A stretch of 64,000 bases of DNA from NCBI GenBank assembly GCA_964035575.1, contig OZ037836.1, positions 1,488,001 through 1,552,000 on the forward strand, given 5' to 3'. Origin of the DNA: Rhynchopus sp. YZ270_cl-10. Taxonomy: Eukaryota. Shown in pieces: positions 3,544-61,359 of the stretch. Both the position numbers and the translations under genes were made by a program. The first letter of the stretch is position 1. Each line of letters starts with the position of its first letter. Below the pieces are notes generated by a model that made no database searches, was not told the DNA's origin, and saw only the letters and a program-made list of their open reading frames with translations.

Positions 3544-3666
3544 GGCAAAAAAATAAGTTCTGCTCCCTCACAACTTTTTGAATAGCACAACCCGACACAG
3601 CACAACCCACCCCCACCACCACAGTTCCACCACATTATATACCCGTCACACCCTTCACACTTCAAA

Positions 3667-13207: not shown

Positions 13208-13330
13208 GGCAAAAAAATAAGTTCTGCTCCCTCACAACTTTTTGAATAGCACAACCCGACACAGCACAACCCACCCCCACCACCACAGTTCCACCACATT
13301 ATATACCCGTCACACCCTTCACACTTCAAA

Positions 13331-20217: not shown

Positions 20218-20756
20218 ACCTCAGGGAGACACAAACACACATACTCTTTCCACCCCCCCCTCTCACACACTCTATCCCCTCCCCTCCCCTCTCACCTCAC
20301 ACCCTCCCCACCTCAGGGAGACACAAACACACATACTCTTTCCACCCCCCCCTCTCACACACTCTATCCCCTCCCCTCACCTCTCACCTCACACCCTCCC
20401 CACCTCAGGGAGACACAAACACACATACTCTTTCCACCCCCCCCTCTCACACACTCTATCCCCTCCCCTCACCTCTCACCTCACACCCTCCATACTGTAA
20501 ACTTGTTTAAGTAGCTTTGCTACGCCAGGGGGGTCTCTAGGATAAAATATGTCGCGAATAAGAAAGTCTTTTCCCCCTCCCCCTTTTTCGCTATGGATAT
20601 ATTTTTTTTTTGCGCGTACCATTTCTCTATTGCTACGTGCCCTTTTGTTGTTATTGCTTACCACTTGCTTCGGCAAGGTTGGTTGAGGACGTTACGGGGA
20701 AATCTCACCACCACCTTCATCAGTATTTTGTGTTGTGTTTCCCCAGTCTCGCCCTC

Positions 20757-21875: not shown

Positions 21876-21903
21876 TAACTACGGCACCACTGACCAGAGA
21901 GAG

Positions 21904-24966: not shown

Positions 24967-26564
24967 ATGTTTTTTCTATTTTCTAGGGTGTGGCTTTGTT
25001 TTTTCTGGTCGTCGGAGTGCGAATGGTCGAGTCAAGGTTGTTGTTTTTGATGTTTCGTGCGTGTGTTTCGCGTGGGGCTGTTTTTTACCTACGTTACGTT
25101 TTTTCGTGCCATATTTTTTGTGTTCGGAGTTGTTTTCTGTCATGAGACAGTATTGGAGATTATGCTTCTCACGTGGAGAACGCTACCTCAGTGTGGCGTC
25201 AAAGTTGGGCACAGGTCAGGGCACGAGCGACGGGTGTTTCCCCAGTCTCGCCCTCATGACCACATACCTCGCTGCCGTTTTTTCGGCGCTATTAACCAAA
25301 AAAGACCTTTCCCCCCATATTTTATCCTAAAGAGACCCCCATACTGTAAACTTGTTTAAGTAGCTTTGCTACGCCAGGGGGGTCTCTAGGATAAAATATG
25401 TCGCGAATAAGAAAGTCTTTTCCCCCTCCCCCTTTTTCGCTATGGATATATTTTTTTTGCGCGTACCATTTCTCTATTGCTACGTGCCCTTTTGTTGTTA
25501 TTGCTTACCACTTGCTTCGGCAAGGTTGGTTGAGGACGTTACGGGGAAATCTCACCACCACCTTCATCAGTATTTTGTGTTGTGTTTCCCCAGTCTCGCC
25601 CTCATGACCACATACCTCGCTGCCGTTTTTTCGGCGCTATTAACCAAAAAAGACCTTTCCCCCCATATTTTATCCTAAAGAGACCCCCCCACCTCAGGGA
25701 GACACAAACACACATACTCTTTCCACCCCCCCCTCTCACACACTCTATCCCCTCCCCTCACCTCTCACCTCACACCCTCCCCACCTCAGGGAGACACAAA
25801 CACACATACTCTTTCCACCCCCCCCTCTCACACACTCTATCCCCTCCCCTCCCCTCTCACCTCACACCCTCCCCACCTCAGGGAGACACAAACACACATA
25901 CTCTTTCCACCCCCCCCTCTCACACACTCTATCCCCTCCCCTCACCTCTCACCTCACACCCTCCCCACCTCAGGGAGACACAAACACACATACTCTTTCC
26001 ACCCCCCCCTCTCACACACTCTATTCCCTCCCCTCCCCTCTCACCTCACACCCTCCCCACCTCAGGGAGACACAAACACACATACTCTTTCCACCCCCCC
26101 CTCTCACACACTCTATCCCCTCCCCTCCCCTCTCACCTCACACCCTCCCCACCTCAGGGAGACACAAACACACATACTCTTTCCACCCCCCCCTCTCACA
26201 CACTCTATCCCCTCCCCTCCCCTCTCACCTCACACCCTCCCCACCTCAGGGAGACACAAACACACATACTCTTTCCACCCCCCCCCTCTCACACACTCTA
26301 TCCCCTCCCCTCACCTCTCACCTCACACCCTCCCCACCTCAGGGAGACACAAACACACATACTCTTTCCACCCCCCCCTCTCACACACTCTATTCCCTCC
26401 CCTCCCCTCTCACCTCACACCCTCCCCACCTCAGGGAGACACAAACACACATACTCTTTCCACCCCCCCCTCTCACACACTCTATCCCCTCCCCTCCCCT
26501 CTCACCTCACACCCTCCCCACCTCAGGGAGACACAAACACACATACTCTTTCCACCCCCCCCCC

Positions 26565-27653
26565 CAGTGATGCAGGAATCCAGGGTCCCAAACAAAAAAA
26601 CCCATAAAAACCCAAAAAAACCCAAAAAAACCTTAAAAAATCCCACCGCACTATATTTTGCTTTTGGGGCGTGGAGTGTGATTTTTTTTGCTCAAAACAT
26701 CGCAAATATGAATTTTCGGAGCGATCTGAAAAAAATGCGGGGTCGGACATTTTTTTTGGTGGAGTTTAAGCCACCTAAAATTGACTTCTAAGTCAGACGT
26801 TCTATACGGTTTCTGAACAATTTTAGTGCCGTGAGTTTACGTGTATAAACCTTCTGTTACGTGTGCACCTACAGCTACAACAGGCGTTTTCACCTGGAGT
26901 TTCACCTCTTTTGGTGGGTTTTTTGAGTCCATACCCAGGTATGTGGGGTGGGAAACGCGATTCCGGTGTAAGAACCATGGGTGGTTCCACTGCAGTACCA
27001 CGTAACCCACGTTTAAATCCCAAAAAACCCCGGTGACACCATCTTCTCGGTGAGCAATGAGTGTTACCCGCGCGTGCTCCTTTCGTCACGCAAACCAAAA
27101 AGCGGTGCAATGTTGTGAATTTTTGAAGATTTTGTGTGTTTTCCTGATTTTCGTACATTTTGTTGCGTTTTGGGTTATGATATTGTAGATTTTTGTGTAG
27201 ATTTCGTGGGTTTTTTCGTTTTTTTTTGTTGTAAATTTGGGCGACCGCCTGGCTGGTGCCTGTATGAAGTGGTTTTTCAGGTCAAAAATGGCCTGAAAAA
27301 GTGGTGTTTTCGGGGTCTGGTACCTGTGTGTGACCATACTACAGGTGGTATGATGAGTGATCTGACCATATTCTCCAGGTATAACAAACACCTAAAAAAC
27401 CAATTGGCGAAGGAATTTTACACTTTTGACCACCACACATTACATGTTTACCAAGGCATTTTTTCCATGCACTTGTGTGTGCTGGGAAGCATACCGCCAG
27501 TGTTAAAAATTCACGAATACCCTACCAAAAACCAGAAAGTCAAAAAACCCATAAAAACCCGAGAAAACTGGTTTTGAAAAAACCCGAAAAAACCCAAAAA
27601 AACCCATAAAAACCCGCATAAAAACCCATCGAAAAACCCACCTTGCATCACTG
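26565..27653. mobile_element. Non-autonomous hAT-like element within the satellite
   Basis: TIR CAGTGATGCA.../...TGCATCACTG, flanked by C8 on both sides; AAAAACCC subterminal repeats. Confidence 0.8.
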
Positions 27654-28168
27654 CCCCCCCCTCTCACACACTCTATCCCCTCCCCTCACCTCTCACCTCA
27701 CACCCTCCCCACCTCAGGGAGACACAAACACACATACTCTTTCCACCCCCCCCCCCCCTCTCACACACTCTATCCCCTCCCCTCCCCTCTCACCTCACAC
27801 CCTCCCCACCTCAGGGAGACACAAACACACATACTCTTTCCACCCCCCCCCTCTCACACACTCTATCCCCTCCCCTCCCCTCTCACCTCACACCCTCCCC
27901 ACCTCAGGGAGACACAAACACACATACTCTTTCCACCCCCCCCTCTCACACACTCTATCCCCTCCCCTCCCCTCTCACCTCACACCCTCCCCACCTCAGG
28001 GAGACACAAACACACATACTCTTTCCACCCCCCCCCTCTCACACACTCTATCCCCTCCCCTCACCTCTCACCTCACACCCTCCCCACCTCAGGGAGACAC
28101 AAACACACATACTCTTTCCACCCCCCCCCTCTCACACACTCTATCCCCTACCCCCCACCCATTACACA

Positions 28169-37019: not shown

Positions 37020-39796
37020 CCCCCCCCCCCCCCCCCAATCAACTATGTCGATTATTGAGTCACATTTGAACGGCGTGCAACTTGCTTATGATGCAGTCGT
37101 GCTTTGAAGCTTTTGTGCGAGACGAGATCTGGGCTTTGGAGGTTTTGGTGGGCCTGAACGAAGGTGATCTCCGGGATGCAGTGATGGAATTTTGGGAGTT
37201 GGTGCAATCAACGATAAAACCTTTTTTTCCCTTTTACTTACCTATCAGGGTTACTATTTTTATATTACAATTTTGCCACTTTGTTATTTTATGGGTGTTT
37301 TTGGGTTTATTTTAAATTACAAATTTACTTAATTGTAATTCAAAATAGTAATTTTTGCATTTTTTTTCGGGGTGAAAATTTATTTTTTATTTTTATTTTT
37401 ACTATTTTTGTCAGCCCCGCCGCCAGGATTTTGGGTTTTGAAAAAGTTCTGTTGATGGTCCAAAAAAAAATTTCGCGCTTCGCGCGAAAACCCCTGCAAA
37501 GCTCCTTCTCGTGGCCTCCGGCGGAGAGACGCATGTTCCCCAAGCCCGGTCAGAGTTCCCCCGAATCAGCGACATTTGCTCTTTCCTCTCACCAGGCTGT
37601 ACATTGTACTCTTCGGTGGCTGTCCACAAGCCGTAGTGGGTGTCAGCCTTTTTATCAGTAAGCAGCGGTTATGGTACCCAAAGGTTCCTGGCGAAGCCAC
37701 GGTACGCAACATTTTTAAAAAATGTTCCCATAAAATGGAACTGCTTGCGCCGCAGGCGCACGGTACGCAACTTTTTTTATTCTTCACCACCCGATTTTGA
37801 CTTTTTTGGGACGTTTGAGCACTCACCTCTCCATATCTTCTTCTCCTGAGATTTTTTGACAAGTAGAACGGGTCTGAACCACTCAACAGAACTTTTTTTT
37901 TTTTTTTTTTTTTTTTTCTTTTTTCATTTTCAAAAAGTTCTGTTGACCATCAACAGAACTTTGCTAGGTGGCGGCCCCCCTGATTTTTGTGAATAGGTCT
38001 GTACAATAATTTTTGTTCCTTCCGGGGGGGAAGGAAAAGTTCCTGTTAAGGCTTGAGTACCAGCAATGCCTATTGCCTTGCGTACAAAGGTTCGAAGAGT
38101 GAGTACAGCTCTTTATACCAGTAGGTGTAAATACGGTTGTCAATACAAACAAACAAACAAAAAGGATGCTTGCCTAGCTTTGTGTACAAGCAAACTGAAG
38201 GCTGGATCTTTTTTCTCTCTCTCTCTTTTTTTCCCCCCTGTTTTTTTCTTTTTTTTTTTTTTTCCTTCAGTGCCTGCGTCCACTGATGTACGGTGAGGCG
38301 TTTGCACTCTCAAGTTTGGCTACTGGGATCAAGGCGACCAAGCAACGAGAGGCTTAGGGTCATCTTATAAACTTTTCTATTTTCATACCTACAAAAAAAA
38401 AAAAACGTAGCTTAAAGGAGAAATAGTTCCTCTCGATACAGTCGCCAATCATCCCCCCCCTCTAACAGGATAATTGAGCAATCAACGAAAAAAAAACCCC
38501 CTTTTTTTTCTTCCTTTTACTTATCAGAGTTACTATTTTTCTCTCTCTTTCCTCTCTTGTTGTTGTTGTTGTTGTTTTTTTTTTTTTTCAGATGTAAATC
38601 ACGAAATGGATGTGGGGCTGCATGCACGACGTTGAAGTAAATTACTTTCCTTGTGGTGTTACATGTCATCTTTTTTACTTGTGTTTAAGCTGTACGCTTA
38701 CGTTTTTACGCGTGCCACAAGTAAACTATTTTCATAAGGGTAGCACAATTAAAAATATTGTTTAGTGTCCTGCGCGCGAACAGATTTTTGGAAATCCAAA
38801 AAAAAAAAATAATTGGGACACAACTACAAAAAAAATAATTTTTATGGTTGGTAGGTTGAAGTCAGGACGGACGAAGTCTCGGAGGCCCTAAGGGGGAAGG
38901 TAGGTAGGGCACTTCTGTCTGGGAAAAAGTGACCAGAAAAAAAAAATGTTGGGGTCCCGTGCTCCCAAATGTGCGAAATAAGCAAGAAATAAGCATTTTT
39001 GCGCACACGTGTATAAAAAAAAATCCGCCTCCGGCGGGGTTCGTTTTCGAGGATTTTCAGAGATCTCACGTTATGAAGATTTCCTTAAGAAACCATTGAA
39101 TCTCATATTTCAGAATAATAGTACCTTAGAGTGTTTTTGGACACACATGTGACCCCACCGTGGAGAGCAATCGGCTCGTGCAATCAAAAGAAAGTGGAGA
39201 AAAGGTACAAGAATAAAAAAAGTTGGGTACCGTGCACCTGCGGCGCTGCCTGTTCCCTACCAGTTTCTACAGGCAAACACTTGACCCCTTTACCTTACAC
39301 TGACGGGTTTTGACCAAAACCAAGAACTTGTCCATTTCGGCAAATTGACCCCACCACAGAACGGACGGATTCCGAAAATGCAAATGCCGGTGTTTTTGCA
39401 CATTTTCATGTTTCAAGACGTCAGGATCAGGGAGAGAAAATCTGGTTGTGGGATTTACCTTGGCCCTCTTTACCCTACATGGATTTTGACCAAAACCAAG
39501 AATTTGGCCATTTCGGCAAAGTGACCCCACCACAGTGCGGACGGATTCCGGAAATCCCAATCGCGGTATGTTTTCGGGCTGAAAACCCACTGTTTTTTCA
39601 GGGGAAAAAATTGCTTCCAAATGTCGGAATTTTCCGAATTTTCCTGAAAATGACCCTTGTTTACGAGTATGGGTTCATATTTTGCGAAAATTTAAGTCAC
39701 TAAAATTTTGTCCATTTTTCCGTATTCACCCCACCACAAGCCGGGATTGGCTCAGAAATGCAACAAAACGCCCCAGAGTTAGGAAATAGCCTGAAA

Positions 39797-43679: not shown

Positions 43680-44815
43680 TTTTTTTTTTTTGCAAATAGA
43701 ACAGACTCTCCGCTAGGATTTCCGATTTTGAAAATATTCTGTTGATGGTCCACGTTGGTGGGGTACATGCTTGCGCCGCAGGCGCACGGTACGCAACTTT
43801 TTTTTTTACCAACGCCCGATTTTGACTTTTTTGGGACGTTTGCGCACTCACCTCTCCATATCTTCTTCTCCTGAGCTTTTTTGACAGGTAGAACGGGTCT
43901 GAACCACTTAGCAGAACTTTTTTTTTTTCCTCTTTTTTTCCCCATTTTCAAAAAGTTCTGTTGACAATCAACAGAACTTTAGTACCTAGCGGAGTGCCTG
44001 AAATAGAAGGGGGAAAGGGTGTGATGTACCCCCCTAAGTGGCCAAGGGGCTATCTCAACAAAGGAATGCACCTCTTAACTTACAAAGTTACTACAGTGAA
44101 ATACAATACAAAACAAACAGAGTAGCAAAAAAAAAAAAAAAAGCAAAAAAAAAACAAGTAATTGCTATCGGAAAAAAACGGGGTGTGATGTGGAACTCCA
44201 TCCTGTAGAAATAATCTACAACACGCCCAGCATTCTGCTCTTCTGTAGGTATGCTAACGCTCTTCGTACGCTGCCAGACCCACTGGGACGCCAGCATCTG
44301 AAACGTTCAAGAAGGGGGGCTGTCCTCTTCATCCAGCACCATCTGCTCGAGAGCGTTGTTGGACGTCGGCTCGGCAGGCTCGGCGTGTTCCAGCTCGTAG
44401 TTGTCCACAGGCTCCCCACATTGTCGTCGTCGTTGGAGCAGTGCGGAAGGAACACAGAATGCACAGACTACAACACATCGATCACACCAGGCGCATCAGC
44501 ACCTCCACCAAATCGCCAGGATGCTACGGTGGTTTCGAAAATCGCGCGGAGTTTTCCACATCACACCCGTTTTTTCTTAGCAATTAGTTGTTCTTGTTGT
44601 TATTGTTATTTTCAACCACCTTCCTTCAACCCTTGTAGGGATCAGTTGTTATTTTTTTCGCGAAAACATGAAATTATACATTTCAAGAGAACAAATTAAA
44701 AAGGGTCCTTATTTGCATTTTTGGGATCCGCCCGTGCAGTGGTGGGGTCAATCTCGAAAATTGGATAATTTTTTGACCACTTAAATTTTGAGAAATATGA
44801 GCCCGGTTCCTTATA

Positions 44816-46219
44816 CAGTGTGACACAGAATTAATGGCCGATGAAGACATTTTATAAAAAAACGGCAAATTTTGACAAGGACATATTCAAAACACCCCCA
44901 AAACATAAAATATTTACGCCCAGGAACACAATAAAAGCAAAAATATAATGGTTAAGGGTAAAGTGAACACTGAGGCCACGAGGGAAGGGTTGCGCCTACA
45001 GGCAGCGTCGCTAGTCGTTGTTGGCGGTAAGAGCCATGATGAGGTGGCGGAGTTGCTGAACGTTGCGAAGAGGAGTTTGGGTAGGTGGGTGAAGGAGTAC
45101 CGCGCTGGAGAGCGGAATTTTTCGGACAAGCCAGGGAGGGGACGCAAGAGATCGGCCACCACCGACACCGTTAAGAATAGGGTGGTTAGACACATGCGGG
45201 GCAAGCGGTTTCAGTCTTGCAGGAAAGTAGCGTCGCGACTACAGATTTCGAGGGAGAGTGTCCGCAGGTGCCTGAAGGAGAAGGGGCTGAAGCCCGTTCA
45301 AACGAAGAGCAAACCAAAGCTCTCGGAAAAGAACATCACTGCCCGGATAGAGTTTGCTGAAACGCATCGAAACACCGACTGGTCAAAGGTGATGTTCACC
45401 GATGAAAAAGACTTTTGGCTTTTTTCTCGGGTGAGCAAGAAGAACGATGTTGTCTGGGTTGCAGATGGTGATGAGCCGCCCCCAACCGTTGATAAGGTCA
45501 GGGCTACGCAGAAGGTTCACGTCTGGGGAGGAATCACCACCAGAGGTAAGACGAAGCTCTATTTCTATGACGGTGCTCTCAATGCAGAGAAGTACCGTAC
45601 GCTCGTCTTACAGAAAGCGCTCAAAGAAATAAAAGAACTCCTGCCTGACAGTAGCTACACGTTTCAGCAGGATGGGGCACCCTGCCACACTGCGAACGTT
45701 ACTCAAGCATTCCTCTCCTCCCAACCTTTCTCGTTCCTCCCTAAAGCTGACTGGCCAGGCAACTCCCCTGATCTCAATCCTATTGAGAACCTGTGGGCCA
45801 AGCTGCAGACTGCAGTCAACGAACGGGAGCCCAAAGACGTGTCAGCACTTAAACGTGCCATCAACAAGGAATGGTCCAAGATGGACAATAGCTTCGTTGC
45901 ACGTTACATCATGTCAATGCCACGACGCCTAGACGCAGTTCGCAATTCCAACGGAATGCACACAAAATACTAATGCATGCTCTATTTATTTTTGTGCACC
46001 CACTCGTTTGTACTGCTACACTGTATTTTTTTTTTTTACACATACACCCTTTTTTACCAAAAAGGGATATTTCCATGTTAATATTTTCCCCACACACACA
46101 CTTTTCATACACGGCCAGTTGAAAATGCAATGAAATGAGTCAAATTTTGCCTATTTTTTAGAATAATATAACAATTTTTACAAAATGTCGTCATCGGCCA
46201 TTAATTCTGTGTCACACTG
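44816..46219 (+). mobile_element. Full-length Tc1/mariner-superfamily transposon
   Basis: TIR CAGTGTGACACAGAATTAATGGCCGATGA..., TA TSD, empty sites at ~10105 and ~46480. Confidence 0.95.
44948..45973 (+). CDS. DD37E transposase, intact ORF, 341 aa
   Basis: N-terminal HTH + GRKR; FTDEK, QQDGAPCH, SPDLNPIENLW; 37 residues counted between the second D and the E. Confidence 0.93.
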   Translation: MVKGKVNTEATREGLRLQAASLVVVGGKSHDEVAELLNVAKRSLGRWVKEYRAGERNFSDKPGRGRKRSATTDTVKNRVVRHMRGKRFQSCRKVASRLQISRESVRRCLKEKGLKPVQTKSKPKLSEKNITARIEFAETHRNTDWSKVMFTDEKDFWLFSRVSKKNDVVWVADGDEPPPTVDKVRATQKVHVWGGITTRGKTKLYFYDGALNAEKYRTLVLQKALKEIKELLPDSSYTFQQDGAPCHTANVTQAFLSSQPFSFLPKADWPGNSPDLNPIENLWAKLQTAVNEREPKDVSALKRAINKEWSKMDNSFVARYIMSMPRRLDAVRNSNGMHTKY

Positions 46220-48762
46220 TACGTGGGGCCCATTTTCGGCTAAAATTTTCCTCAAAATCTGGTTTTGTAAAATTGACCCTTTACTCCCCCCCCACATCGA
46301 TTTCAATACTATACCTTACTTCACCTACGGTTGCCCTTACAGGGGGGTGAAGGAAGGTAAGTTGAAAAGGGTCCTTATTTGCATTTTTGGGATCCGCCCG
46401 TGCAGTGGTGGGGTCAATCTCGAAAATTGGATAATTTTTTGACCACTTAAATTTTGAGAAATATGAGCCCGGTTCCTTATACGTGGGGCCCATTTTCGGC
46501 TAAAATTTTCCTCAAAATCTGGTTTTGTAAAATTGACCCTTTACTCCCCCCCCACATCGATTTCAATACTATACCTTACTTCACCTACGGTTGCCCTTAC
46601 AGGGGGGTGAAGGAAGGTAAGTTGAAAAAGCAAAAAACAAAGCAAACATACTTTCAAACCCCCCTAAGCTCGAGACATATACAATGGTGACGACTCTTTG
46701 GCCAGTTGTGTGTGCACGTTTAGGAAAAGGCAACTTACCTCTTTAGCCCTACCGACTCCATTTTCTTGGAGCTTCCAGGACCGTACATTGCGCCGTTCCC
46801 TAAAAAGGAATGGTGAAAAAAGTTTTTTTTTTTAAAGTACAGATCGTTATACCAGTAGGTATAACGTGATTGTTGATGCAACGAAAAAAAGAAAAAGAAA
46901 AAAAGCAATTTCAATGGGTGGAAAGGGGGCACCTGTACAACGGGGGGTACCTAATGTCTTAGTCAAAGGAGCGTGGGCACTGTGTTGGGTGATCTTTGTT
47001 TCTCTTTATTTTTACCTGGTTGTGGTTCACGTGGTGTAACCACAACAGCATCAAAGTGATGCACCGTGTTTTGAAAAAATATGGATCAGAAAAATTGGTC
47101 CATAAAAATAATAAAACCTACATTCTCGAACTTTTCTACTGGTTTAATTAACCAGTTGGATTCCTCTTGTTCGTAACAGTTCCAAGTTGGTACTTCATTG
47201 TAGACGCGTCCAGGGCAGTGTTAGCCGAGAATCAGAGGCCGCAGTTGCACCCGACGTGATTTTCATTGGACGCATCCCCGTACGCGTACCGCTTCGCATG
47301 TTTGTATACAAAAAAAAAAAAAAAATTCCAAAAGGTCCACAATTATTCTGATGCATATTTTTTCAAAACACGGTATCTGAATTCAGACGTCTTTTTGGAC
47401 TTTCTCTTTCTTTGATGTTTGAAATAATATGAAATAAAAAGTGTTTTGTTCCGCCTCCCCTAGGCATCTAAAGTTTGCACCTTCGCTTTGGTTAAGGATC
47501 TAAAAAGCTAAAAAAAAACACAAACACAAAAAAAAAAAAAGCCAACACAAAGAGTACAAACCATGAGCTAAGCCTCCCCTGGGCATACCCCGAAGGCGAA
47601 TTTCGTATTGGCCCTATATTCGGATCCGAATATAGTACGCGCGGCCCTCCCCTAGTCATACCCCGAAGGCGAATTCGTATCTACCCTATATTCAGATCCG
47701 AACATTCCGAATAGGATCTGAATATCCAGGAATTTTGGGATCTGAATGTAAGGTGAAAATACGGATTCACCTTCGGGGTATGTGCCCCACCCCCCCCCCC
47801 CCCATCCCCCTTTCATTACTCTGCAAAGAAATAGAAAATGCGAAGAGAAAAAAAAAAAAGAAAATACAGAACAAGAAAAAATAAAGCAAAACAAAACAAA
47901 ATGAAAGAAAGAAAAAGCAGAAGAAGAAAAAAAAAAAGCGCAAAAAAAAAAGGCAAAAAAACAACCACCTTCCTTTTGCTCTTCATTACCGCGGTTTAAT
48001 TTAACAGCCCCTTCGGAAAATATAAAAATGCCCCGCTAGTTAAAGCTCAAAATGAGAATAGTTGAAGGAGTATTGGCGTTATTGACCGCCAGGCAGGCAG
48101 TCAATTCTGTTCTCGCGAATCCGGTTGGGAGGGGGGAAGACCGCAACCCCATCGAAGCCATCCCTATCTCATACAAAGTAACGCGCCCTTCCTCTCCAAC
48201 CCCCACGTCTACAAAACTATCAAGCAAAATTAAACGAGAGCACAAAGCACTTTCGAAACATACAAAAAAACATTTTCAAACCCCATCTGAGCCATATAGA
48301 AGCTATCATCACCGTGCACCGTTTAAGGGTGGGGTATTGGTGGTGGAGGGGGAGGAGGAGGTGAGAAATGGGAGTTGGAGCTCATGGCCTTTTCTCGAAG
48401 TGTCACAGGCCTACATCTGTGTTCTCGTTGGACCATTTGGTCACGTATCTTTCCAAAGTGGTGTTCTTACACATGCTTTCACATTGATCACTCCCCAGCA
48501 CCCCGCCACACACAGAGAAATCAGAACACAAAACCACAACAAACAAATGGACGTGCACTTCGAGGATTTCAGAGCGAATCAGCACACAGTCGAGGTGGGT
48601 GCAGATGACACAGTGGAGGGCTTGCGGCGGAAGGTGGCGACTGCAATGGGGTTGCCTGAAGACAGCTTTTGCATGAGTTTCGGAGACGAAGCGATGGGAG
48701 AAGGAGCGGACATGACGCAGCTGAGTGCTGGTGACACAATCATCCTCACGAAGACGAAGAAG

Positions 48763-50811
48763 GGTCATGTTGAATCTCTTCGAGAAAGGCCACCTACTCG
48801 ACCCCGGGGTGGCCTTCGACTACAGACGGATCATGACGTGGGCTAAGATGACGCGCAAGTCGGAGGAGATCTGTGCACTGCTTGAGAACTGCAGGGTACG
48901 AGCGAAACGGAAGCAAGCGAAGTCTGGGGGGCCCATCGGGTTGGTTGCACGCGCTCTACTCCGCCTCAACTGGAAATGGGAGAGCGCCACGACAGTGACG
49001 ACGCACGACGGGAACCTCATCGATGTGAAGACCATTGAGCTAGGGGAACTCGGCCATCTTGTGCGGGAGCGCATGTTCTTCGTACGGCTCTCCAGTACGA
49101 AGACAGATGTGAATGCAAAAGGCGGAGGCAGAGCTAACCTGCGGGGGATCCGAGCAGGGGTGGACAAGGAGAAGACACTGGCGCTTACCAAGAGCAAAGT
49201 TTTGTCGGACTACGAGGCGGGGACGTTACGACACATCGTGGCTGACGGTACTCTCACGGGGGTGCGACTTGCGAGGGCAAAGTTACGAGAAACGGCCACC
49301 TGCCCGTATTGTGCTGCAGGGGTGGATGAGGATCCCAAGCATATGTGGTGGGAGTGTGTCGCATGGGAAAGCATCCGCACGGACTACCCCTTACTCCTGA
49401 ACATTGACAGAACGAACTGGCCGAACTGTCTGTCTATCTGCGGAATGTGCACACCGGAAACACCTTTGGCCACCGCCCGTGTTGCAGACCTGCAGATGAT
49501 GATGGTGAGGATCCTCATCGAGCGATACCGGCAAAACAGGACACAAGAGATGAAGCCGCAACTGGAGCAAGAGCGTTATCCGTGGACATGGGAACCGGAT
49601 GCGGACACGACGACGCAGTATCCGAATGTGTTAGGAAGCTGCACCCTCCCAGTGAAGAAATGGCCGTATGGACGTGCGTTGCTGCTGGCGATTGCCTACT
49701 GGCTGGGAGGCCTACGGTGGAGCAACGAGGCTGGACGCGAAGTCTCGCACATGGAACTCCTCATTGACTTCGAGGTCTCCACGGGGATGGACATCCGCCC
49801 CGGAGATAAGACTGGAAAAAAGCCGCCAAAAGTGAAGCAACCGGGGAACGGGGCTGGGGGCGTGGTCAATGGTGGTGGGGGTGGCGACGGGGAAATGGAT
49901 GACGGGGGTGGGGAGGGTGGCAGCGACGACGGCGACGGCGACGACGTGATGCCAGAAGCTCTTCCCCACAACGAAATGGCGAAAGCGACCACTTTTGGTC
50001 ACATGCTGTCTACTCTCCGAACCCATGCTGCAACGCCACTGCATCCGGGTAAGCCGAAGATAGCTATGACACTGACGTCGTTCGGGGCACACGGTCTCGC
50101 CGGTATCGACTGCCGTCCTGTTTTTGCCGGCGGTGAAGAGACCATACGTGTTCTACGTGCACTTTTCGACGCTGGCACGGCGTACCGACAGCAGCGCAAG
50201 ACGGAAGGCATGACGGAGGGGGAGATTAGGGGCAACGGTAGAGCGAGGGGTACGTGGATGGGGGAGTACGCTGCTGAGACGGCATACCCCCCCGCAGACG
50301 AGAGGGGAAGGAGGGCGCTGCGCTTTTTCGAGCAGGCAGAAGAGGAGAACGTGCCCATACGTTACAGGCACGATGAGCACGTGAAACCAGGAGACGCGCC
50401 TGTGAAGGCACCTGCAGGAGCGATCTCGATTGGGCCATTTGCGATCTGTGTGCAGCACCGGAAGGCCCGATGTGACGCCTGTGCGAAGGACCAGATGGCA
50501 GACCTGAGGCACTGCTGCTATGCGCACCACTCCGACGGCGATGGGCTGGCCATTCGACACGAGGCGTGCACACGACACAGACTCTCGAGATGCGGAAATT
50601 GCGTGCGGGACAAGACAACCCTGGACCACTGCTGCCGCCGCCACCACGACACTGCGGGGGGGCGACAGACGACGTTGGGAGGCCTCTTCAGCAAGAAGAA
50701 GCAGAAGGATGGACACAGCAGGGGCGGTGATGGACTTATGTAACATCACCTCCACGATGTATTGTATCACCTATCTCGGATAGGGGTGCATGCATCGAAA
50801 ACGGACCCCTA
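48763..50811 (+). mobile_element. 5'-truncated non-LTR retrotransposon (family B)
   Basis: 19-bp TSD CCTCACGAAGACGAAGAAG (48744-48762 / 50812-50830); 3' end TAGGGGT...ACCCCTA hairpin, no poly-A. Confidence 0.88.
48764..50743 (+). CDS. C-terminal part of a LINE ORF (CPYC...H...C knuckle, ELLIDFE block, two Cys/His repeats)
   Basis: CPYCAAGVDEDPKHMWWECVAW; homologous to 15586-17310. Confidence 0.8.
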   Translation, partial: VMLNLFEKGHLLDPGVAFDYRRIMTWAKMTRKSEEICALLENCRVRAKRKQAKSGGPIGLVARALLRLNWKWESATTVTTHDGNLIDVKTIELGELGHLVRERMFFVRLSSTKTDVNAKGGGRANLRGIRAGVDKEKTLALTKSKVLSDYEAGTLRHIVADGTLTGVRLARAKLRETATCPYCAAGVDEDPKHMWWECVAWESIRTDYPLLLNIDRTNWPNCLSICGMCTPETPLATARVADLQMMMVRILIERYRQNRTQEMKPQLEQERYPWTWEPDADTTTQYPNVLGSCTLPVKKWPYGRALLLAIAYWLGGLRWSNEAGREVSHMELLIDFEVSTGMDIRPGDKTGKKPPKVKQPGNGAGGVVNGGGGGDGEMDDGGGEGGSDDGDGDDVMPEALPHNEMAKATTFGHMLSTLRTHAATPLHPGKPKIAMTLTSFGAHGLAGIDCRPVFAGGEETIRVLRALFDAGTAYRQQRKTEGMTEGEIRGNGRARGTWMGEYAAETAYPPADERGRRALRFFEQAEEENVPIRYRHDEHVKPGDAPVKAPAGAISIGPFAICVQHRKARCDACAKDQMADLRHCCYAHHSDGDGLAIRHEACTRHRLSRCGNCVRDKTTLDHCCRRHHDTAGGRQTTLGGLFSKKKQKDGHSRGGDGLM

Positions 50812-52384
50812 CCTCACGAAGACGAAGAAGTACGAAGCCATTGCAGAGCTTCATGCGTTGGGTGTGACCGACATCACAGCCGAGAAGTTGGAGAGTGTGG
50901 AGGATCCTGAGGTGGCGTGTTTGCTTCTGCAGGCGGAGGTTACGACTGTCATTCCGGATTGGTTCTTGTCAGACACTTCGTTGACGAGACTTGATCTCAG
51001 TGCTGAGTCCATTGTGACTCACATTGGAGACAGGTTCCTGGCCCACTGCACCTCGTTGACAAGTCTGGACCTCTCTGGGTTGAGCAATGTGACGCAGGTT
51101 GGTGAGAGCTTCCTTGTCAACTGCAACAGCTTAACGACCCTGGATTTGTCACCATTCAGCAACCTGTCGCAGGTGGGTGCGTGGTTCCTTGAGGGCTGCA
51201 CCAGCTTAACGAGCCTGGATTTGTTATCACTCAGCAACGTGACGCAGGTGGGTGCGGGCTTCCTTACGGCCTGCAGCAGTTTAACGACACTGGATTTGTC
51301 ACCACTCAGGAATGTGACGCATATTCGTTTGTACTTTGGAAGTACGCGTTTTGCTGGGAACTGCACTTCGTTGACGAGCATTTACCTTTCCGGCTGCAGC
51401 AGTGTTGTGTCCGAAGAAGTGAGGAACGACGAGCAGCTGAGTAAGCTTGTGGTTGAAGCACGTCCGAAACGAAGCAGAGACGAATCCCCCGAGCAAAGCC
51501 AGAAGCGACAGAGACACGCACAATGACGACGGAGACACGCCTACCTTTCAGAGTGCGCTATCCGCTAACAGAGGTGCCCTCTCCCTTGAGTGCCATGGTC
51601 GTCTCGCACTGCTGTCACTGAATCAGGATATCGAACGCAGATATGCTGTTGAATGCAAGCTGAGACACGGATTTCCGGCAGTCGAAGAACCCGACGCTGA
51701 TGATGAGGAACAAGAAGAACAAGCCCCGAACGATAAGGAAGAGCTTGTCACTCTTGATGAGGCCGTGCAAGTCATGAGGCCTGCAGTTGAGGCCTTGGGA
51801 GATCAAACTTGATGTGTTTTGACAGTCTCGCCTGTTTCATTCAATTTTTACTTTTCGTCTTCACCCTACATTTCTTCGGTTTCTCCTTGAAAGGAAACTA
51901 CGTGATTTTTATATTACTATTTTTGTTGCATGTATCTTCCAGTCCTGTGGCTGGCTGGAATAACTGGATGCATGCAACCCTGCAGTGCCATCAGCCATCT
52001 TGAGTTCACGAGATTACTGTGAACTCCGCTGCAGTTGCTGTGTTACATTTTACTGTTTCCTCAGTCCGCTAACTTTTTTGAAAGATATTTTTACGTCCAG
52101 TGGATGTTTCCCACTGCTCGATGTTATGCATCACTTTTTTTTTACTTTTCTTCCCGACTGTTGGTGAACAAGACCATCCCCTCACCACCCCAATACTGGT
52201 GATAGCACTCTGTGCTGTTACGCTGTGCTGCAAAAGAATCCCCACAAAAACCCATGTCTTATTCATTACAACGTACCTCCCCGCCCAACCCCCCTTTTTT
52301 TCTGTAATCCATCACTCTGAACTCGTTGACACCACGTGGTCTTTCACTGTCTTCTTGGTAGCTTGCACGAAGAGGTGTGAGGTG

Positions 52385-52430: not shown

Positions 52431-55372
52431 GTGGAGTCAACTCTTGTGCTGTGCTGGAGGAAGGGGTGTGGGAGGTGGAGGTGCACAGTGTTGTGAGTGT
52501 GGGGGGTTTGGGTGTGGCGCTTCCCGCCGTCGTTTTGTGGTGATGATGGGAGGGGAAGCTGTGTCTGGCGGTGGGGGTGCTTTCGTGCATTTGTCTGGCA
52601 CCTCAGCTTGTCTGTGGTTGCAGCACGAGAGCACCTTTGGCGTTCTTCCTTGCGTGGGGTGGGTGGAGACAGCGTGGAGGCTGTGCGGGTTTCTTGCAGA
52701 ACGGGGCAGGTAACGGTGCGTGAGAGGGGCAGGGGAAGGTGGGTTTGCTTTCGTGAGGAGGGAACGTCTGTGGGGTATGTAAGATAGAAACAGCCTGCAG
52801 TCTGGTTCCTCTTCGTAATGCATGTCACACATGCATGACCCTGTGTCTGCAATGCTCCCCGCTCATGTGGCTGATGAGTGGAAGCGGGGGTAGGCCTTGT
52901 CAGATGTAAACCACGAAGTGGATGTAGGACTGCATGGTTGGGGTCCACCCCAGAGTGCCTCTATGAGGCCAATGAGGGTTGTTGGGCATTTATTGGGAGG
53001 AAGTAATTTTTCAATAATTTGGCGTCAGCCCGAAATTCCCAATGCAATCAAACGATTCATATGCAGTGTATGCCTAGGGCTACACGCTGCGCACCACACT
53101 GAGTAACATGCGTTTGCATGCCGCTCTGCTTGGCACAATATGCTAGCATGTTGCTAACTGCATTTGCCTGCATTATTGGGCACCGCCACCCTCCACCTGG
53201 GCCAGCTACGCCACCGCCAAGAATCTGCTTCACCTTTTGCGGGGGGCTTCTTCGAACCTACTCACCACAAGGCTGTATGCGTGCATAGGACCAGCACATC
53301 TTCTTCTCCAGGGTGCATGCTTCTGACGTCACCTTCACTGTGTGCGCAGTGCGTTCAAACGCATGCACGATGTCCACAGCTTGCGTAGTGTCCTCTGCAG
53401 AGCTGCGCACCAGGGCAGTCCCCTGACGCTGAACAGGTGTCTTGCAGCATTCACCTTTGCCAGCACCGTGCCAGATGCGAAGGTTGTTGGGCTCTGTGAT
53501 CCGTTCAGAGGTGTCTAGGTAGGGTGGGCTACCTCTGTGAACAGCCGTAACGTCATGGACGGGGCAAGCACGGTATTGGGCACGAATGTGTGCATGTGAG
53601 ACACGAGCATGTTTCGTGAGGCAAGATGCTCATTACCTTAGTAACAAAGACCTTTTGGTTTTACATTGTACTTCCTCCCCAAGACAAGATGGAAAAAGAA
53701 CAGTGCTCTCAAGATCCTCCACGTAGGGGAGGATATTTCCTCCAGGGGCTTTTTTTTTTTTTTTCAGGCTTTTTTGGTGGAGGATTTCCTCCATTATTTT
53801 TTTTTTTTTGGCGGGCTCGGGTGGAGGATTATCCTCCTAGGGGTTTTATAGTGGGGGGTCACTTTGTCTCCCCCGAGGGAGCCAATATTTTCCCGAGCCT
53901 GTATGCACCGTCCAGGGCTGCACCTTTTGCCTGCGGCGCCATTTTCATTTTTCGCTACTCAAAAAAAGGGTTCGTTGAGTGATTCTGTGGTGTAAAAGGA
54001 AGCATTTTTACACCGTACCCTAATTTTTTTTCGCCTGCGGCGCCATGTATATTAATTTTTTTGCTCCGCAAAAAAATAGAGTTGACAATGTCTTTGGATA
54101 CCCTTGCATTTTGCAGCCAAAAAATACAACTTGGCCAAAGCTGCAAAAAATTTACCATTTCAAAAAAATTACCCGCCGTTGCATCAGCCCCTGCTTCTGG
54201 AAGACGTCTTGGTTTTGTACGGTTCGTGGAGCGTACGGTGCAAGAGAAAGGATTAGATTTCCGTTTTTTATTATCTCGTAAAATTGACCCGCCTCTCCGC
54301 TCTGTGGCTGTCAGGGAGGCGCGCGCGAAGCGCGCGACGACCGCTCGTTGCGGGGGAAATTTTTTTTTTTTGGGGGGGTTTTTTTCATACATTGAAATCC
54401 CCGGGAGTCGCGGAGACTCTCCACTGGTGTTTTCGAGAGTTTTAGCGATTAAAAAAAAAGAAAAAAAATTCGCGATTAATCGCGAATTTGTGAAAAACTC
54501 TCGAAAACTCTCCAATTTAAAAAAAAAACTCTCCAAAACTCTCCAAAACTCTCCAATACTCCCCGATTTAAAAAAAATACTCTCGAAAACTCTCCAATTT
54601 ATAAAATAAAAATTTGCGATTAATCGCGAATTTATGAAAAAATCTCGAAAACTGGGCCATCTATAAACGGGGAGAGATTTTTTCACAAGCTCTCACTACG
54701 TTCCGAGGGGGTTTTTGTACTTTAGTGGTGTGGCTGGCAACATGTATTCTGTGGTGGTCAAAAGTGCAATGTTCCTTCTCCAATGGATTTATTGGGTGTA
54801 CTGCTATACTGGGACAATATGGTCAGATCACTCTTCAAACCACCTGGAAAAGTGCACGACATCTAAAAATTTCCGCCTGCGGCGGGAAGCCTCGACCCGT
54901 TTTCACCCTTTTCTTGTTCCTTATCCCCATATTTAAAATAGCCCTGCTTACATGTGGTGGTATGCTTCAGTGCTGGTATGGTGTACCATTTTTCGCCCAG
55001 AGTAATTTAAGCGTAATTATATCTTAAACAGGTGTGGATAATTTCCAAGCGCGGAATTAACCCGTCGCATTTGTGATCGACCTGTGGGCTCGTTTGCTCA
55101 TGTCCGCCACCACTGTGCCGCCTAAAGCCGCGAGGCTTATCACCCCTCTGTCGTGGTGGGTGCATTTTGCGAATCAATCGGTAGGTGTAATGTGAGTACG
55201 TAGACTGAACGTGTGCCCAGGTAGGCGCAGGTCAGATGCGGATAGCACCAGGTGTGCACGGTTGTGTTTGGGGTAAAATGCTACAAAAAATCGCGATTTT
55301 ACTCCCGGGGATTAATCGCGAATTTTGTCGCGATTAATCGCGAAAACTCTCCGTAAAAAAAAAAAAAAACAC

Positions 55373-56653
55373 ATGACGCACGGACTGGACGTGCTGTGGG
55401 AGGCCCACCTGCAAACCGTTGCGTACCACCTCCGACGTGTAGCTGCCAACGACTACGAGAAGTTCATGCGACTGCCCGACTCACCTGGACATGCTGCCGC
55501 ACTCTCCACCACCAAACCACCTGGCCGCACCTGGCTCTCAGAGGCTACCGACACCATCGACGACTCCAAGGCGTACAGGCACAGTGAACGTGCATTGCTG
55601 TGTGAACACGACCCCGTATGTCCCTGGGAATGGGAGGAGCTCTCGCAGTCTCTGCGGATCACCCCCACCATACCGGGCATCAACAAGAGCAGCGGAATGC
55701 CGGCTGACATCATGCTACTGCGGGCGGAAGAGACCCTCGCCGCTCTACCCAACTACGACGTGCACGTCTACACCGACGGGTCGTGCCAAGACGTGTCCCA
55801 GCGCGTGACCGCCGCTGACCCTAACCCACCTGTGCATCAACGTGGTGGCGCTGGCGCCGTGTTCTACGCGGGGGATCGACTACACTCCCACACCAAGGAG
55901 CTGCAAACCGGAGCGGGCACAGTGAGCTCCAGTTACCAGGCTGAGCTGGTGGCAATCTGCCTTGGCTTGGAAGGCATCACGACCTGGGACGCACCCGCAG
56001 AAGTGCTCCTGCTCACGGACTCGCAATCCGCACTGATGGCGCTGGCGAGTGGCCCATGCGGGGTGCACGAGGACACGCTGCACCGACTCTGGCGTCTCCT
56101 ACACTCACGTGCCCGTGAAGGGTACAAACTCCACCTGCACTACATCCCCTCCCACGTGGGGGTGCTAGGCAATGAGGCAGCCGACAAGCTCGCTAGCCGT
56201 GCGAACAACAGCCCCGCGAACCACGAGCGGATCAGCCTTGCGAGCATCCGCGCGTGCGTAAAGCGACGTGCCCTCAGCCGCGAGCCCACACCGTCTGAGC
56301 GCAGCATCTACTCCTACAAGAGTGGATCCACCACCGCCCTGCACCGACCTGCGCTGCGTACACCGCACCTCACGCGGCTGGGTGCGACGACCATCCGCAA
56401 CCTCCGAGTGGAACGCCACCCACTCGTCTACAACAAGCTGCACCCGGACAGGACGGCGTACTGTCCACGTTGCTCCGAAGAGGCTTCGCTCCGCCACATC
56501 TTCTCCCGGTGCAGCAACCCCGCAACCCCACGCTCCAGCCTCCCTTCAACGAACCTGGGGCAGCTGATGCAACGCCACGAGGCAGACGTGCTCCGCTTCC
56601 TTTGCGAGGCTGGATACCTGGACGATGAAATTGAATCACTCATGCGCCATTGA
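55373..56653 (+). CDS. LINE ORF C-terminus: RNase H and zinc knuckle
   Basis: VYTDGS, SSYQAELVAI, LTDSQSAL, IPSHVGVLGNEAADKLA; CPRC...HIFSRC. Confidence 0.88.
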   Translation: MTHGLDVLWEAHLQTVAYHLRRVAANDYEKFMRLPDSPGHAAALSTTKPPGRTWLSEATDTIDDSKAYRHSERALLCEHDPVCPWEWEELSQSLRITPTIPGINKSSGMPADIMLLRAEETLAALPNYDVHVYTDGSCQDVSQRVTAADPNPPVHQRGGAGAVFYAGDRLHSHTKELQTGAGTVSSSYQAELVAICLGLEGITTWDAPAEVLLLTDSQSALMALASGPCGVHEDTLHRLWRLLHSRAREGYKLHLHYIPSHVGVLGNEAADKLASRANNSPANHERISLASIRACVKRRALSREPTPSERSIYSYKSGSTTALHRPALRTPHLTRLGATTIRNLRVERHPLVYNKLHPDRTAYCPRCSEEASLRHIFSRCSNPATPRSSLPSTNLGQLMQRHEADVLRFLCEAGYLDDEIESLMRH

Positions 56654-57055: not shown

Positions 57056-57260
57056 AAAAAAAAAAAACACTCTCGAAAACTCTCGAAACCAAAAAAACAC
57101 TCACGGGGAGTTCGTTTTTTTTGATTTTTTGCCAAACTCCCCGTGACTCCCCGGGATTTCAATGTATGTTTTTTGCAAAAATGAAATCCTCCTCATTTCG
57201 AAAATTCTGCTTTTTTCGTGGAGGATCTTGAGAGCCCTGAAAAAGAAACTGTTATTTTTA

Positions 57261-58173
57261 CGTGCACTTCGAGGATTTCAGAGCGAATCAGCACACAGTC
57301 GAGGTGGGTGCAGATGACACAGTGGAGGGCTTGCGGCGGAAGGTGGCGTCTGCAATGGGGTTGCCTGAAGACGGCTTTTGCATGAGTTTCGGAGACGAAG
57401 CGATGGGAGAAGGAGCGGACATGACGCAGCTGAGTGCTGGTGACACAATCATCCTCACGAAGTCGAAGAAGCAAAAAGCCATTGCAGAGCTTCATGCGTT
57501 GGGTGTGACCGACATCACAGCCGAGAAGTTGGAGAGTGTGGAGGATCCTGAGGTGGCGTGTTTGCTTCTGCAGGCGGAGGTTGCGACTGTCATTCCGGGT
57601 TTCTTCTTGTCACACACTTCGTTGACGAGACTTGATCTCAGTGCTGAGTCCATTGTGACTCACATTGGAGACGGCTTCCTGTACCACTGCACCTCGTTGA
57701 CAAGTATCAATCTTTCTGGGTTGAGCAATGTGACGCAGGTTGATAACGGCTTTCTTGTCGGATGCAGCAGCTTAAACAACATCGATTTATCTCCACTCAG
57801 CAATGTGACGCAGGTTGATGCAGCGTTCCTTCAGGACTGCAGCAGCTTAACGACCCTGGATTTGTCGCCACTCAGCAATGTAACGAAGGTTGATAACGGC
57901 TTTCTCCACGGATGCAAGAGCTTAACGACCCTGGATTTATCTCCACTCAGCAACGTGACGCATATTCGTAGCGGTTTAGGAGGTACTACTGCTGCACAAT
58001 TTGCTGCGTACTGCCCTTCGTTGACGAGCATTTACCTTTCCGGCTGCAGCAGTGTTGTGTCCAACGAAGTGAGGAACGGCGAGCTGAGTAAGCTTGTGGT
58101 TGAAGCACGTCCGAAACGAAGCAGAGACGAATCCCCCGAGCAAAGCCAGAAGCGACGTCGACACGCACAATGA
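57261..58173 (+). pseudogene. UBL-LRR gene, copy 4 (open frame, but native ATG missing)
   Basis: Begins at ACGTGCACTTC, where copy 3 has ATGGACGTGCACTTC; both retro target sites are empty. Confidence 0.75.
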
Positions 58174-58619
58174 CGACGTGGTGTGTTGGTGGCAGGGCAG
58201 CACCTCCCCGAGGTGGAGGGTCTCTGGCAGTGTGTTTGCTTGCGTCCTCTGGTTCGGAGAAGAAGAGACAGTGCTGACAGGTGGTCTGTTGGTAGGTTTT
58301 TTTGCGGAGGGGTTTTTTTTTTGTTAGGACAAATACCATGGATGTAGAAAGTACTTCACGTACTTTTTTTGAAAAAAAAAAGTAAAAAAGTACGTGACGA
58401 AAAATAAAAAAAAACGTACTTTTTTTTTTTTGAAAAAAAAGTCCAGCCTCCCTACAACGAACCTGGGGCAGCTGATGCAGCGCCATGAGGCAGACGTGCT
58501 CCGCTTCCTTTGCGAGGCTGGATATCTGGACGATGAAATTGAATCACTCATGCGCCATTGAGTCACTGATGTGACACCGGCGTGATGACTTTTTAACCTA
58601 CCTTATCAAAATAAGAAAC

Positions 58620-59950: not shown

Positions 59951-61359
59951 ATAAGAAACAAAATTTAAAAAAAAAAAAAAAAACAGAAACAGAAACAAAA
60001 ACAAAAAACAAAAAACAAAAAAAAAAAAAAAAACAAAAAAAAAACCCAATTTTTTTAGCTTTTTTCTTTGAGGGCATGTCCCCTTTTGTCGTCAGCCCAG
60101 AGTCAGTAGGCTCTGCCACACCTTGGGGAGAGGTGTGCGGACTGTGTCTCCAAGAGGAAAAGGGAAGCTGTCCCCCCTGCCCCGTCGCAGTGTGGAACCC
60201 CGCTAAGTAGCACAACAACAAAACTAAGCAAGAGGCAGTACCAGTGGCGCGGCTACCAATAATTACCGCGTAGTCAGCGTCACGCCTACCATGGTAGGTT
60301 ACAGTGAAAAAAAACACGGGTCAGGAAAGATCTTTTGTCTTTTTTTGTCTTTTTTCGAGAATCTCGGGAGAAAAAAAAAAAAAATCAAGATTTTCAGGAT
60401 TTTTGTCTTTTTTTTTCAGGATCTCTCGAGATCTTTGAGATCTTTGAAAAATCCTGAAAAAAAAAGGAAAAAAAAGGAAAAAAAGAGAAAAAAAGATGAA
60501 AAAGATCTTGAAAATCTTTTTTTTCTCAAAAAAAAGATAAAAAAGATTTTTGGGATTTTGAAAAATCTTTTTGGGGAAAAAAAAAAAAAAGATTTTGAAA
60601 ATCTTTTTTTTTTTTTTCAAAGATTTCTCAAGATCTCGAGATTTTTCATGAAATTTCATGGATTTTTCCAGGATTTTTCAGGATTTTTTCAGGATTTTTC
60701 CAGGATTTTCAAATCTTTTCTCTTTTTTTTTTTCTCCCAAAAATCTTTTTTTTTTTTTTTTTTTTCGGGAGAAGAGGATTTTTTTTCTCGAAAAAAAAAA
60801 AAAAAAAAAAGATCTTTCCCGACCCGTGAAAAAAAAAAAAAAAAAAAAAAAGTACTTTTTTACCCATTTGGGTATGGGTTCATATTTCGTGAAAATTTTA
60901 GTCACTAAAATTTTGTCCATTTTTCTGTATATCGCCCACCACAGAATGGGCGGATTCCGGAAATGCAAATGCGGGTGTTTTCGGGCATTTTTATGGCCGA
61001 AAACGCTCCATTATTTTCACGTACGTTGATTTTCACGTGAAAAAAAAAGTACTTTTTTTTTTTTCGATCAAAATTTTTTCGTTTTTTTTTCGAAATCACG
61101 TAAATCACGTAAATTTTTTTTTCAAAAAACGTCACGTACGTGAAGTATCACGTAACCCGATTTTTGGAAAAAAAGTACTTTTTTTTTCGTCACGTACTTT
61201 CTACATCCATGAAATACTCAGGGATTTTTCTAATTGTGGATTGGGATTAAGATTTCGGGGGGTGGAAAAAATTCCTTGAAAAAGATTCCCTGTTTTTCCC
61301 TACAGCAATTTCAGGTACATTCTACCCCACCCCCCACTGTGATGGGAGTCCATTGGAAT

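Follow-up and report, generated by a model that had tools for sequence, protein, structure and literature searches.

The stretch of DNA analysed here, hereafter the window, covers 64,000 bp of contig OZ037836.1 from Rhynchopus sp. YZ270_cl-10 (assembly GCA_964035575.1, positions 1,488,001 to 1,552,000 of the forward strand). It contains several copies of a gene family in which a ubiquitin-like (UBL) start is followed by 25-residue leucine-rich repeats (LRRs), and one of these UBL-LRR genes is interrupted by a long interspersed nuclear element (LINE) of the type with an apurinic/apyrimidinic endonuclease (APE), here called family B. Insertions of family B recur at one site in different UBL-LRR genes, a preference that is strong but not exclusive, and a second family, A, is found at another site of the same genes.

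The interrupted UBL-LRR gene

The insert lies between two copies of a perfect 19-bp direct repeat, with identity stopping at the repeat ends, and an earlier note, made from the letters alone, was right to describe an open reading frame (ORF) inserted into a UBL-LRR gene with a perfect target-site duplication (TSD). When the insert and one copy of the TSD are removed, a single open UBL-LRR frame of 303 codons is obtained, the host gene being otherwise intact. The 19-mer of the TSD occurs five times in the window, against 0.01 expected, and the remaining three occurrences mark the same site, empty, in other UBL-LRR copies. Family B combines a TSD, variable 5' truncation, a fixed 3' end and the lack of a long terminal repeat (LTR), and the insert is a 5'-truncated copy of an APE-type non-LTR retrotransposon. 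The features of the locus and of the related sites in the window, with the reverse transcriptase abbreviated as RT and the untranslated region as UTR, are:

48547–48762, +: host UBL-LRR gene, 5' part, from the ATG to the TIILTKTKK codons, ubiquitin-like segment (open frame without the insert; Pfam)
48744–48762, +: TSD, left copy, 19 bp (exact repeat)
48763–50811, +: family-B (subfamily B2) APE-type non-LTR retrotransposon, 5'-truncated, 2,049 bp (tblastn to P0153; P0154)
48764–50743, +: ORF remnant of 659 codons, in a different frame from that of the host ATG
49301–49357, +: zinc knuckle, CxxC...HxxxxC (read from the sequence; Pfam zf-RVT weak in the relatives P0033 and P0053)
49610–50203, +: extra C-terminal domain with an acidic loop (in 68 of 120 RT relatives; predicted model with pLDDT, the predicted local distance difference test, of 77)
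50447–50650, +: Cys/His-rich tail, common to family A (CC..HH-type motif in 30 of 120 relatives)
50755–50797, +: 3'-UTR hairpin of 19 bp, followed by a 14-nt tail (z -3.1; 1 of 200 shuffles as good)
50781–50811, +: 7-bp terminal stem, TAGGGGT at 50781–50787 and ACCCCTA at 50805–50811, exclusive of the long hairpin
50812–50830, +: TSD, right copy, 19 bp (exact repeat)
50831–51526, +: host gene, 3' part, LRRs with a 75-bp period; the site of family A at 51052 is empty
57260–58173, +: UBL-LRR copy with both sites empty and without a start codon (two nick positions 240 bp apart)
15528–17392, +: truncated family-A element A2, 13-bp TSD (97% to P0274, 57% to the full-length P0016)
5644–7134, +: non-coding insert A1, 15-bp TSD, at the same second site as A2 (only the ends in common with A2)

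In Pfam searches, the paralog at 57241 matched the ubiquitin profile (E 5e-4, below the cut-off) and LRR_8/LRR_5; homology of the host gene to the RHS genes of trypanosomes was not found, its Pfam matches being to ubiquitin-like and LRR profiles only. The frame offset of 1 between the insert ORF and the host ATG rules out an in-frame fusion of host and element at this locus. The 5' junction of the window copy seems to be missing from the read contigs of runs X1 and X4, which continue into other sequence; contigs drop rare variants, and a polymorphism of the insertion is only hinted at.

UBL-LRR copies 1 and 2 open with the leader of a neighbouring gene. They are chimeras with the leader of lysine/alanine-rich genes, which we take to be KAP-like, and contain stops or frameshifts; the KAP-like genes are themselves duplicated in tandem (3361–5648 and 13022–15534).

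Insertion sites of families A and B

The evidence on the site comes from fusion proteins (numbered with a P) and read contigs, in place of genome-wide flank counts. The insert corresponds to residues 1008–1666 of P0153 at 99.7% identity (tblastn), and its ORF shows no difference from P0154 across 659 residues, whereas P0151, with no difference over 636 residues, may be the window locus itself and was left out of the counts. P0153 and P0154 are full-length, with 1,666 residues, and belong to a cluster, examined in all of its seven members, that constitutes the window's own subfamily, B2. The longer-protein search yielded a single relative, P0001 (68%), whose cluster (34 members, 15 of them examined) includes the 1,664-residue ORF P0013 of subfamily B1.

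A foreign N-terminus was found in 4 of the 25 family-B proteins examined. In three of these, P0007, P0031 and P0290, a UBL N-terminus is joined in frame to the element at a point 0–2 codons from the junction in the window, and the joins fall at different residues of the element: 843 in P0007 (B1), 611 in P0031 (B2) and 1216 in P0290 (B1), as compared with 1008 in the window. The UBL parts are only 77, 61 and 73% identical, respectively, to the window's copy at 57 kb, and the fusions thus involve different paralogs; since the UBL parts also differ from one another and both subfamilies are involved, they represent independent insertions. Together with the window copy, four independent insertions of family B are seen at one site.

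Foreign N-termini were also counted among 127 examined members of nine other clusters, and none of the approximately 15 that were found matched the UBL segment; this was a manual count, and some of them are perhaps frameshifted element sequence. Likewise, a blastp search of the UBL segment against all 408 proteins matched only P0007, P0031 and P0290, and a Fisher test of UBL fusions in family B (3 of 4) against the controls (0 of about 15) gave a p-value of 0.004. A random distribution of family B with respect to the UBL-LRR genes, named in the earlier note as the outcome that would speak against its proposal, was thus not what we found. The contigs at the 3' end of family B run across the junction into the target in three runs, those of the low-depth run X7 stopping short of it, and one contig of run X1 links the 3' end to the target in a variant paralog. 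A 29-nt pattern taken from the conserved 3' end of the coding region had no matches in metagenomes, and a protein scan gave five distant loci (24–46%), none of them with a UBL-LRR match.

That two families occupy two different fixed sites, as the earlier note had proposed, was confirmed: A1 and A2 share a nick that lies 240 bp downstream of the B nick, and a contig of run X4 has an A1-like 5' end at the same position. All inserts whose orientation can be read are in sense with the gene, again in line with that note. Its count of three UBL-LRR copies in four with related retro-insertions holds only loosely, because the insert in copy 1 (A1) gave no tblastn match to six clade proteins, all of them full-length or long, and resembles A2 at its ends only. 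A1 is likely a non-autonomous partner.

The 5' end of A2 (15533–15589) is an exact 57-nt copy of its internal segment 16323–16379, as if a template jump had taken place. Four bases short of the end, at 17376–17388, the tail of A2 matches the TSD of this element at 11 of 13 positions, perhaps as a trace left by earlier insertions there. A repeat is nested in A1 at 6294–6997, with copies at 39078–39770 and 8950–9390. Five of the foreign N-termini counted in the other clusters, those of P0209, P0253, P0254, P0257 and P0272, end in THTHTH-like runs; these proteins are truncated members of three further families of the clade, and the runs suggest insertion into (CA)n microsatellites.

Proteins, 3' ends and relationship of the two families

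The full-length proteins of family B contain, in this order, a 2A-like motif just before the APE, the APE, the RT, a CxxC-HxxxxC zinc knuckle, the extra domain and the Cys/His tail. In P0153, Pfam places Exo_endo_phos at 108–312 and RVT_1 at 680–891, both in one ORF, and the E-values in full-length family B are 4.5e-11 for the APE and 1e-19 for RVT_1. The 2A-like motif, GDVEENPGP in B2 with an H variant in B1, fits the consensus GD(V/I)ExNPGP given in the available text of PMC3708506; it was not seen in the family-A ORF. Pfam RNase_H is absent from P0013 (E up to 1) and P0153 (E up to 0.5) and present in some relatives. No Pfam profile matched the fragments of B or A2 in the window, and no Rfam family matched the element, two weak matches at 47657–47778 being far below the cut-off.

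The first approximately 260 residues of the fragment were modelled with a pLDDT of 82.8, and the model gave VIA Z-scores of 10.3 to R2Tg (root-mean-square deviation, rmsd, 5.3; 220 residues aligned) and 7.2 to L1 ORF2p. In its predicted fold, this part of the fragment resembles the C-terminal region that follows the RT core in R2 and L1 proteins. For the extra C-terminal domain, the best VIA Z-score was a weak 3.9 (rmsd 3.5, 80 aligned), and the top rows were RFX5, PerR, Fur, ORC2 and Cdt1, most of which we take to be winged-helix proteins; the model is possibly, if weakly, winged-helix-like. Foldseek gave no match for either model at an E-value of 0.001, and the Atlas no usable match for the C-terminal extension.

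Over the first 100 residues, subfamilies B1 (P0013) and B2 (P0153) share 94% identity, which drops to 60–67% in the last 500 residues, the C-terminal third, yet their final 13 residues are identical. Since exact contigs from four runs also end at the stop codon of family B, the 3' end is conserved across the subfamilies. The intact, near-identical ORFs of P0153 and P0154 and the otherwise intact host gene suggest recent retrotransposition, so that family B may have been active until recently.

The 3' UTR of the insert measures 68 nt and has no poly-A, as noted earlier. The absence of poly-A was, however, also thought to set family B apart from family A, which it does not: both inserts at the A site lack it, and in A2 the 3' UTR likewise folds into a long hairpin, whose 3' arm carries GGGGTG and is followed by a short tail (-34.5 kcal/mol, a value without shuffle control). 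The terminal stem proposed in the earlier note is present as sequence and ends exactly on the last base, an arrangement found in only 0.3% of 20,000 mononucleotide shuffles, but the prediction favours another fold. When the whole UTR is folded, all seven pairs have a probability of 0.0, the GGGGT pairs inside the 19-bp hairpin instead, and forcing the stem costs 7 kcal/mol (-16.1 vs. -23.1 kcal/mol unforced). Furthermore, some dispersed copies lose the match at 50806–50809, before the terminal TA. The terminal stem is probably not a functional structure, although an alternative fold is possible.

The 19-bp hairpin, on the other hand, is likely the recognition signal of the RT. Dispersed copies mostly start at its base (50754–50759), and a variant in run X5 combines an altered loop with a G-to-A change that turns a U-G into a U-A pair, assuming that the 5' arm is unchanged. 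According to the available text of PMC3747384, 3' stem-loops mark stringent LINEs. The likeness between the tail and the element's own target was not significant for family B (8 of 10, p 0.07), 7 of 10 for A1 (p 0.10) and 9 of 10 for A2 (p 0.0014), the last comparison having been picked after seeing it.

The ORF remnant is homologous to family A, albeit diverged, as claimed earlier: it is 25% identical to the A2 ORF at 15586–17307 (E 9e-38). A sister relationship of A and B was rejected by the RT phylogeny, for which we used IQ-TREE on 40 rows hand-picked from 92 with at least 88% coverage, themselves drawn from 120 candidates. B1 and B2 group with P0032, P0034 and the Diplonema papillatum protein P0033 (support 100/98), whereas A groups with P0053 (100/99), and a tree in which A and B were forced into one clade was rejected (lnL lower by 148, p-AU 9e-75). 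FastTree agreed with this placement on all 92 rows; the backbone between the two clades is unresolved. The RTs of A and B are 39% identical, as compared with 49% between B and D. papillatum, whose proteins are the closest named relatives of B. The idea that one clade has partitioned the target sites is therefore unsupported, except at a very old superfamily level.

Several clade members (P0045, P0059, P0073, P0091 and P0124) carry PF02338, which we take to be the OTU-like protease, and P0136 has a ubiquitin domain before the APE. This LINE clade is thus linked to the ubiquitin system more than once.

Explanations, precedents and neighbouring features

We consider it probable that family B is an APE-type LINE whose preference for one codon of the UBL-LRR genes is strong yet leaky, and that the distantly related family A separately acquired the site 240 bp downstream. 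An acquisition of the second site independently of B is likely, as it is simpler than an old common origin. Insertion would take place by target-primed reverse transcription, in which an APE with a sequence preference nicks the bottom strand where the duplicated motif begins, and the protein would recognise its own RNA through the conserved 3' hairpin in place of a poly-A tail. The second nick would shift by a few bases, yielding fusion points 0–2 codons apart, and synthesis of the cDNA would often end early, the end being joined in the window copy through what is likely a 2-nt microhomology. The choice of target would likely come from the endonuclease, possibly aided by the extra C-terminal domain; in R1/Tx1 elements, the APE domains carry target specificity according to the available text of PMC1919474. 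Alternatively, the aid could come from read-through RNA of the host gene, since copies inserted in sense would include the target sequence that lies downstream, which R1Bm requires (PMC7265360, in the available text). A gene family with many copies would tolerate the losses, like the trypanosome RHS genes.

Several observations weigh against this reading. The specificity is leaky: the fourth fusion, P0273, is a B2 copy joined to a 190-residue sequence that is not UBL. Fusion proteins over-sample insertions into coding DNA, and there are four of them. There are about 18 partly fitting contigs per run (18 of 55 in X1, 17 of 90 in X3 and 18 of 43 in X5), and in those listed, about 55–90 nt of the 3' end are set in flanks that differ from one another and are often rich in A. 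These dispersed pieces end at 50802–50814; the shortest, of about 55 nt, may be extreme truncations, a minimal short interspersed nuclear element (SINE) of family B or the ends of other families. Contigs that run into the target had a summed depth of 1,131–1,376 in X1 and 2,900–3,083 in X5 against 4,023 and 6,100 for the exact 3' contig, which is about a third to half, a crude ratio that gives no copy number. For family A, no fusion was seen among 17 proteins, the site is represented by two window inserts and one contig, and no observation ties the abundant P0016 subfamily to UBL-LRR genes. Finally, the reading needs A and B to have converged, as we infer they did.

Much of this would also be seen if family B reads only a short DNA motif genome-wide, like L1Tc/ingi, and the UBL-LRR genes merely hold hundreds of good copies of it, an explanation that we hold possible but doubtful. 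The dispersed 3' ends agree with it, as do the junction of P0273 (VTEK vs. LTKTK at the UBL target), the very large size of the gene family, with tens of read contigs per position, and one loose 5' flank that ends in the TSD-like CGAAGAAG (two contigs, agreement 0.68). Such a relative specificity is described for L1Tc/NARTc in the available text of PMC5814959. The explanation overlaps with the one we prefer and differs from it in degree, but even a paralog diverged to 61% received its insert at the usual codon, and the gene family also serves a second lineage as target.

An ancestor of A and B may instead have targeted the UBL-LRR family already, with the sites drifting later and intervening lineages keeping or losing the trait. 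Both families have the extra C-terminal domain, the Cys/His tail and a 3' end made of a hairpin and a short tail with GGGGTG, and the unresolved backbone leaves room for such a history. The common domains are, however, spread clade-wide (68 and 30 of 120 relatives), B is closer in its RT to the D. papillatum element than to A, and a clade-mate of A in the tree (P0124 cluster) has a (CA)n-like junction rather than a UBL one, all of which makes shared targeting by descent unlikely. Less likely still, and by now largely refuted, is the model of the earlier note, in which sister families divide the sites strictly, in the manner of R-elements, and the terminal stem is the 3' signal. It accounts for two fixed sites in one gene family and for the sense orientation, and the stem is rare in shuffles and could be an alternative conformer, but sister status is rejected, off-target copies exist, and the stem is neither predicted to pair nor kept in all copies. 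A single chance insertion copied by gene duplication or conversion without targeting, which the tandem duplicated blocks with UBL-LRR genes in the window might bring to mind, is refuted by independent junctions (four truncation points, two subfamilies and four UBL sequences) and hardly credible.

Building on the preferred reading of a leaky preference in B and a separate acquisition in A, we tentatively propose that target-specific APE LINEs may have undergone a so far undescribed radiation in diplonemids, their proteins having gained a DNA-binding module at the C-terminus. Two lineages that predate the D. papillatum split would have converged on two sites of the UBL-LRR genes, others would have taken (CA)n, and the hairpin pieces of about 55 nt would be a minimal SINE. 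If this were true, the UBL-LRR family would act as a sink for retrotransposons, and the clade would offer a natural collection of integrases that look programmable.

The nearest precedent is that of ingi/RIME in the RHS genes of trypanosomes. In the leakiness of its specificity, too, family B is closer to ingi/L1Tc than to R2. Like family B, ingi/RIME and L1Tc/NARTc are APE-type LINEs with a non-autonomous partner that use one site in a protein-coding multigene family and make pseudogenes (PMC7563717, in the available text), and family B likewise makes repeated use of one relative site in such a family. Furthermore, the specificity of L1Tc/NARTc is relative, not absolute (PMC5814959), and the 2A-like motif of L1Tc sits just before the APE with the same N/H variation (PMC3708506), as far as the available text of both papers goes. 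Unlike ingi/L1Tc, family B has no RNase H and no poly-A but a conserved signal at its 3' end, and membership of the Ingi clade was rejected on the first two counts. The system also differs from that of RHS in its host family and in having two sites and two lineages that are 25–39% identical.

Elements of the R1 and Tx1 clades (R1Bm, SART1, TRAS1 and Tx1L) share with B the APE, a fixed site and the use of one repeated target by several families, and R1Bm has a TSD of 14 bp, similar in size to that of B (PMC1919474, in the available text). Their targets, as listed in the available text of PMC5035012, are rDNA, tRNA/snRNA genes, telomeric or simple repeats and other transposons, not a protein-coding family. 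This likeness concerns the endonuclease, site and TSD only; all named neighbours of family B are diplonemid or dinoflagellate records with automatic labels. Membership of R2/CRE was rejected, because an APE and not a restriction-like endonuclease is present and the R2 match is confined to the RT and the region after it. The CRE/SLACS/CZAR elements of spliced-leader genes and TcTREZO of the MASP pseudogenes of T. cruzi are, like B, site-specific in repeated euglenozoan genes (available text of PMC5814959 and PMC12278014), but CRE elements have a restriction-like endonuclease and a poly-A end, and TcTREZO has been described as assembled from genomic pieces.

The LINE proteins of D. papillatum, such as P0033, have the same 2A-like motif and the same extra domain as B, in addition to the 49% RT identity. 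Their NCBI labels (R2/R2DM/jockey) are automatic, and the R2 label is misleading since an APE is present. The paper on the D. papillatum genome leaves a rigorous study of transposons for later (PMC10161547) and a trypanosomatid survey names four clades only (PMC12278014), both as far as their available text goes. No description of a UBL-LRR/LINE system was found in the literature, Repbase and subscription journals being outside the search, and the presence of two deep LINE lineages on two fixed sites in one protein family is new. LINEs with a preferred site mostly insert into RNA genes or simple repeats, and the only protein-coding targets in the literature found are the RHS and MASP families of trypanosomes. 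As both families have intact, near-identical full-length copies, swaps of the endonuclease or the C-terminal domain between A and B would test the target choice of APE LINEs. The system also bears on the question whether hot-spot gene families have been selected as decoys or are hit by accident, being abundant.

Other mobile elements are found elsewhere in the window. At 20562–24966 lies a tyrosine-recombinase retroelement that we take to be TATE/VIPER-like, with a gag-like ORF and overlapping recombinase-like and RT ORFs (RVT_1; the recombinase was read from motifs), and an apparently intact Tc1/mariner transposase (44909–45973; DDE_3, HTH_Tnp_Tc3_2) sits between repeated flanks at 44693–46482. 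Together with the KAP-like genes and the relatives of family B in D. papillatum, the TATE/VIPER-like element points to a diplonemid or related euglenozoan as the likely host. The 3' fragment of an RNase H-bearing LINE at 55316–56653 has its 3' region again at 58442–58615, 59951–60314 and 2287–2348. Tandem arrays with a 92-bp unit occupy 25684–26565 and 27654–28159, the latter continuing into an ORF of 988 codons with matches to EF-hand, Mind-bomb SH3 and RanBP zinc-finger domains.

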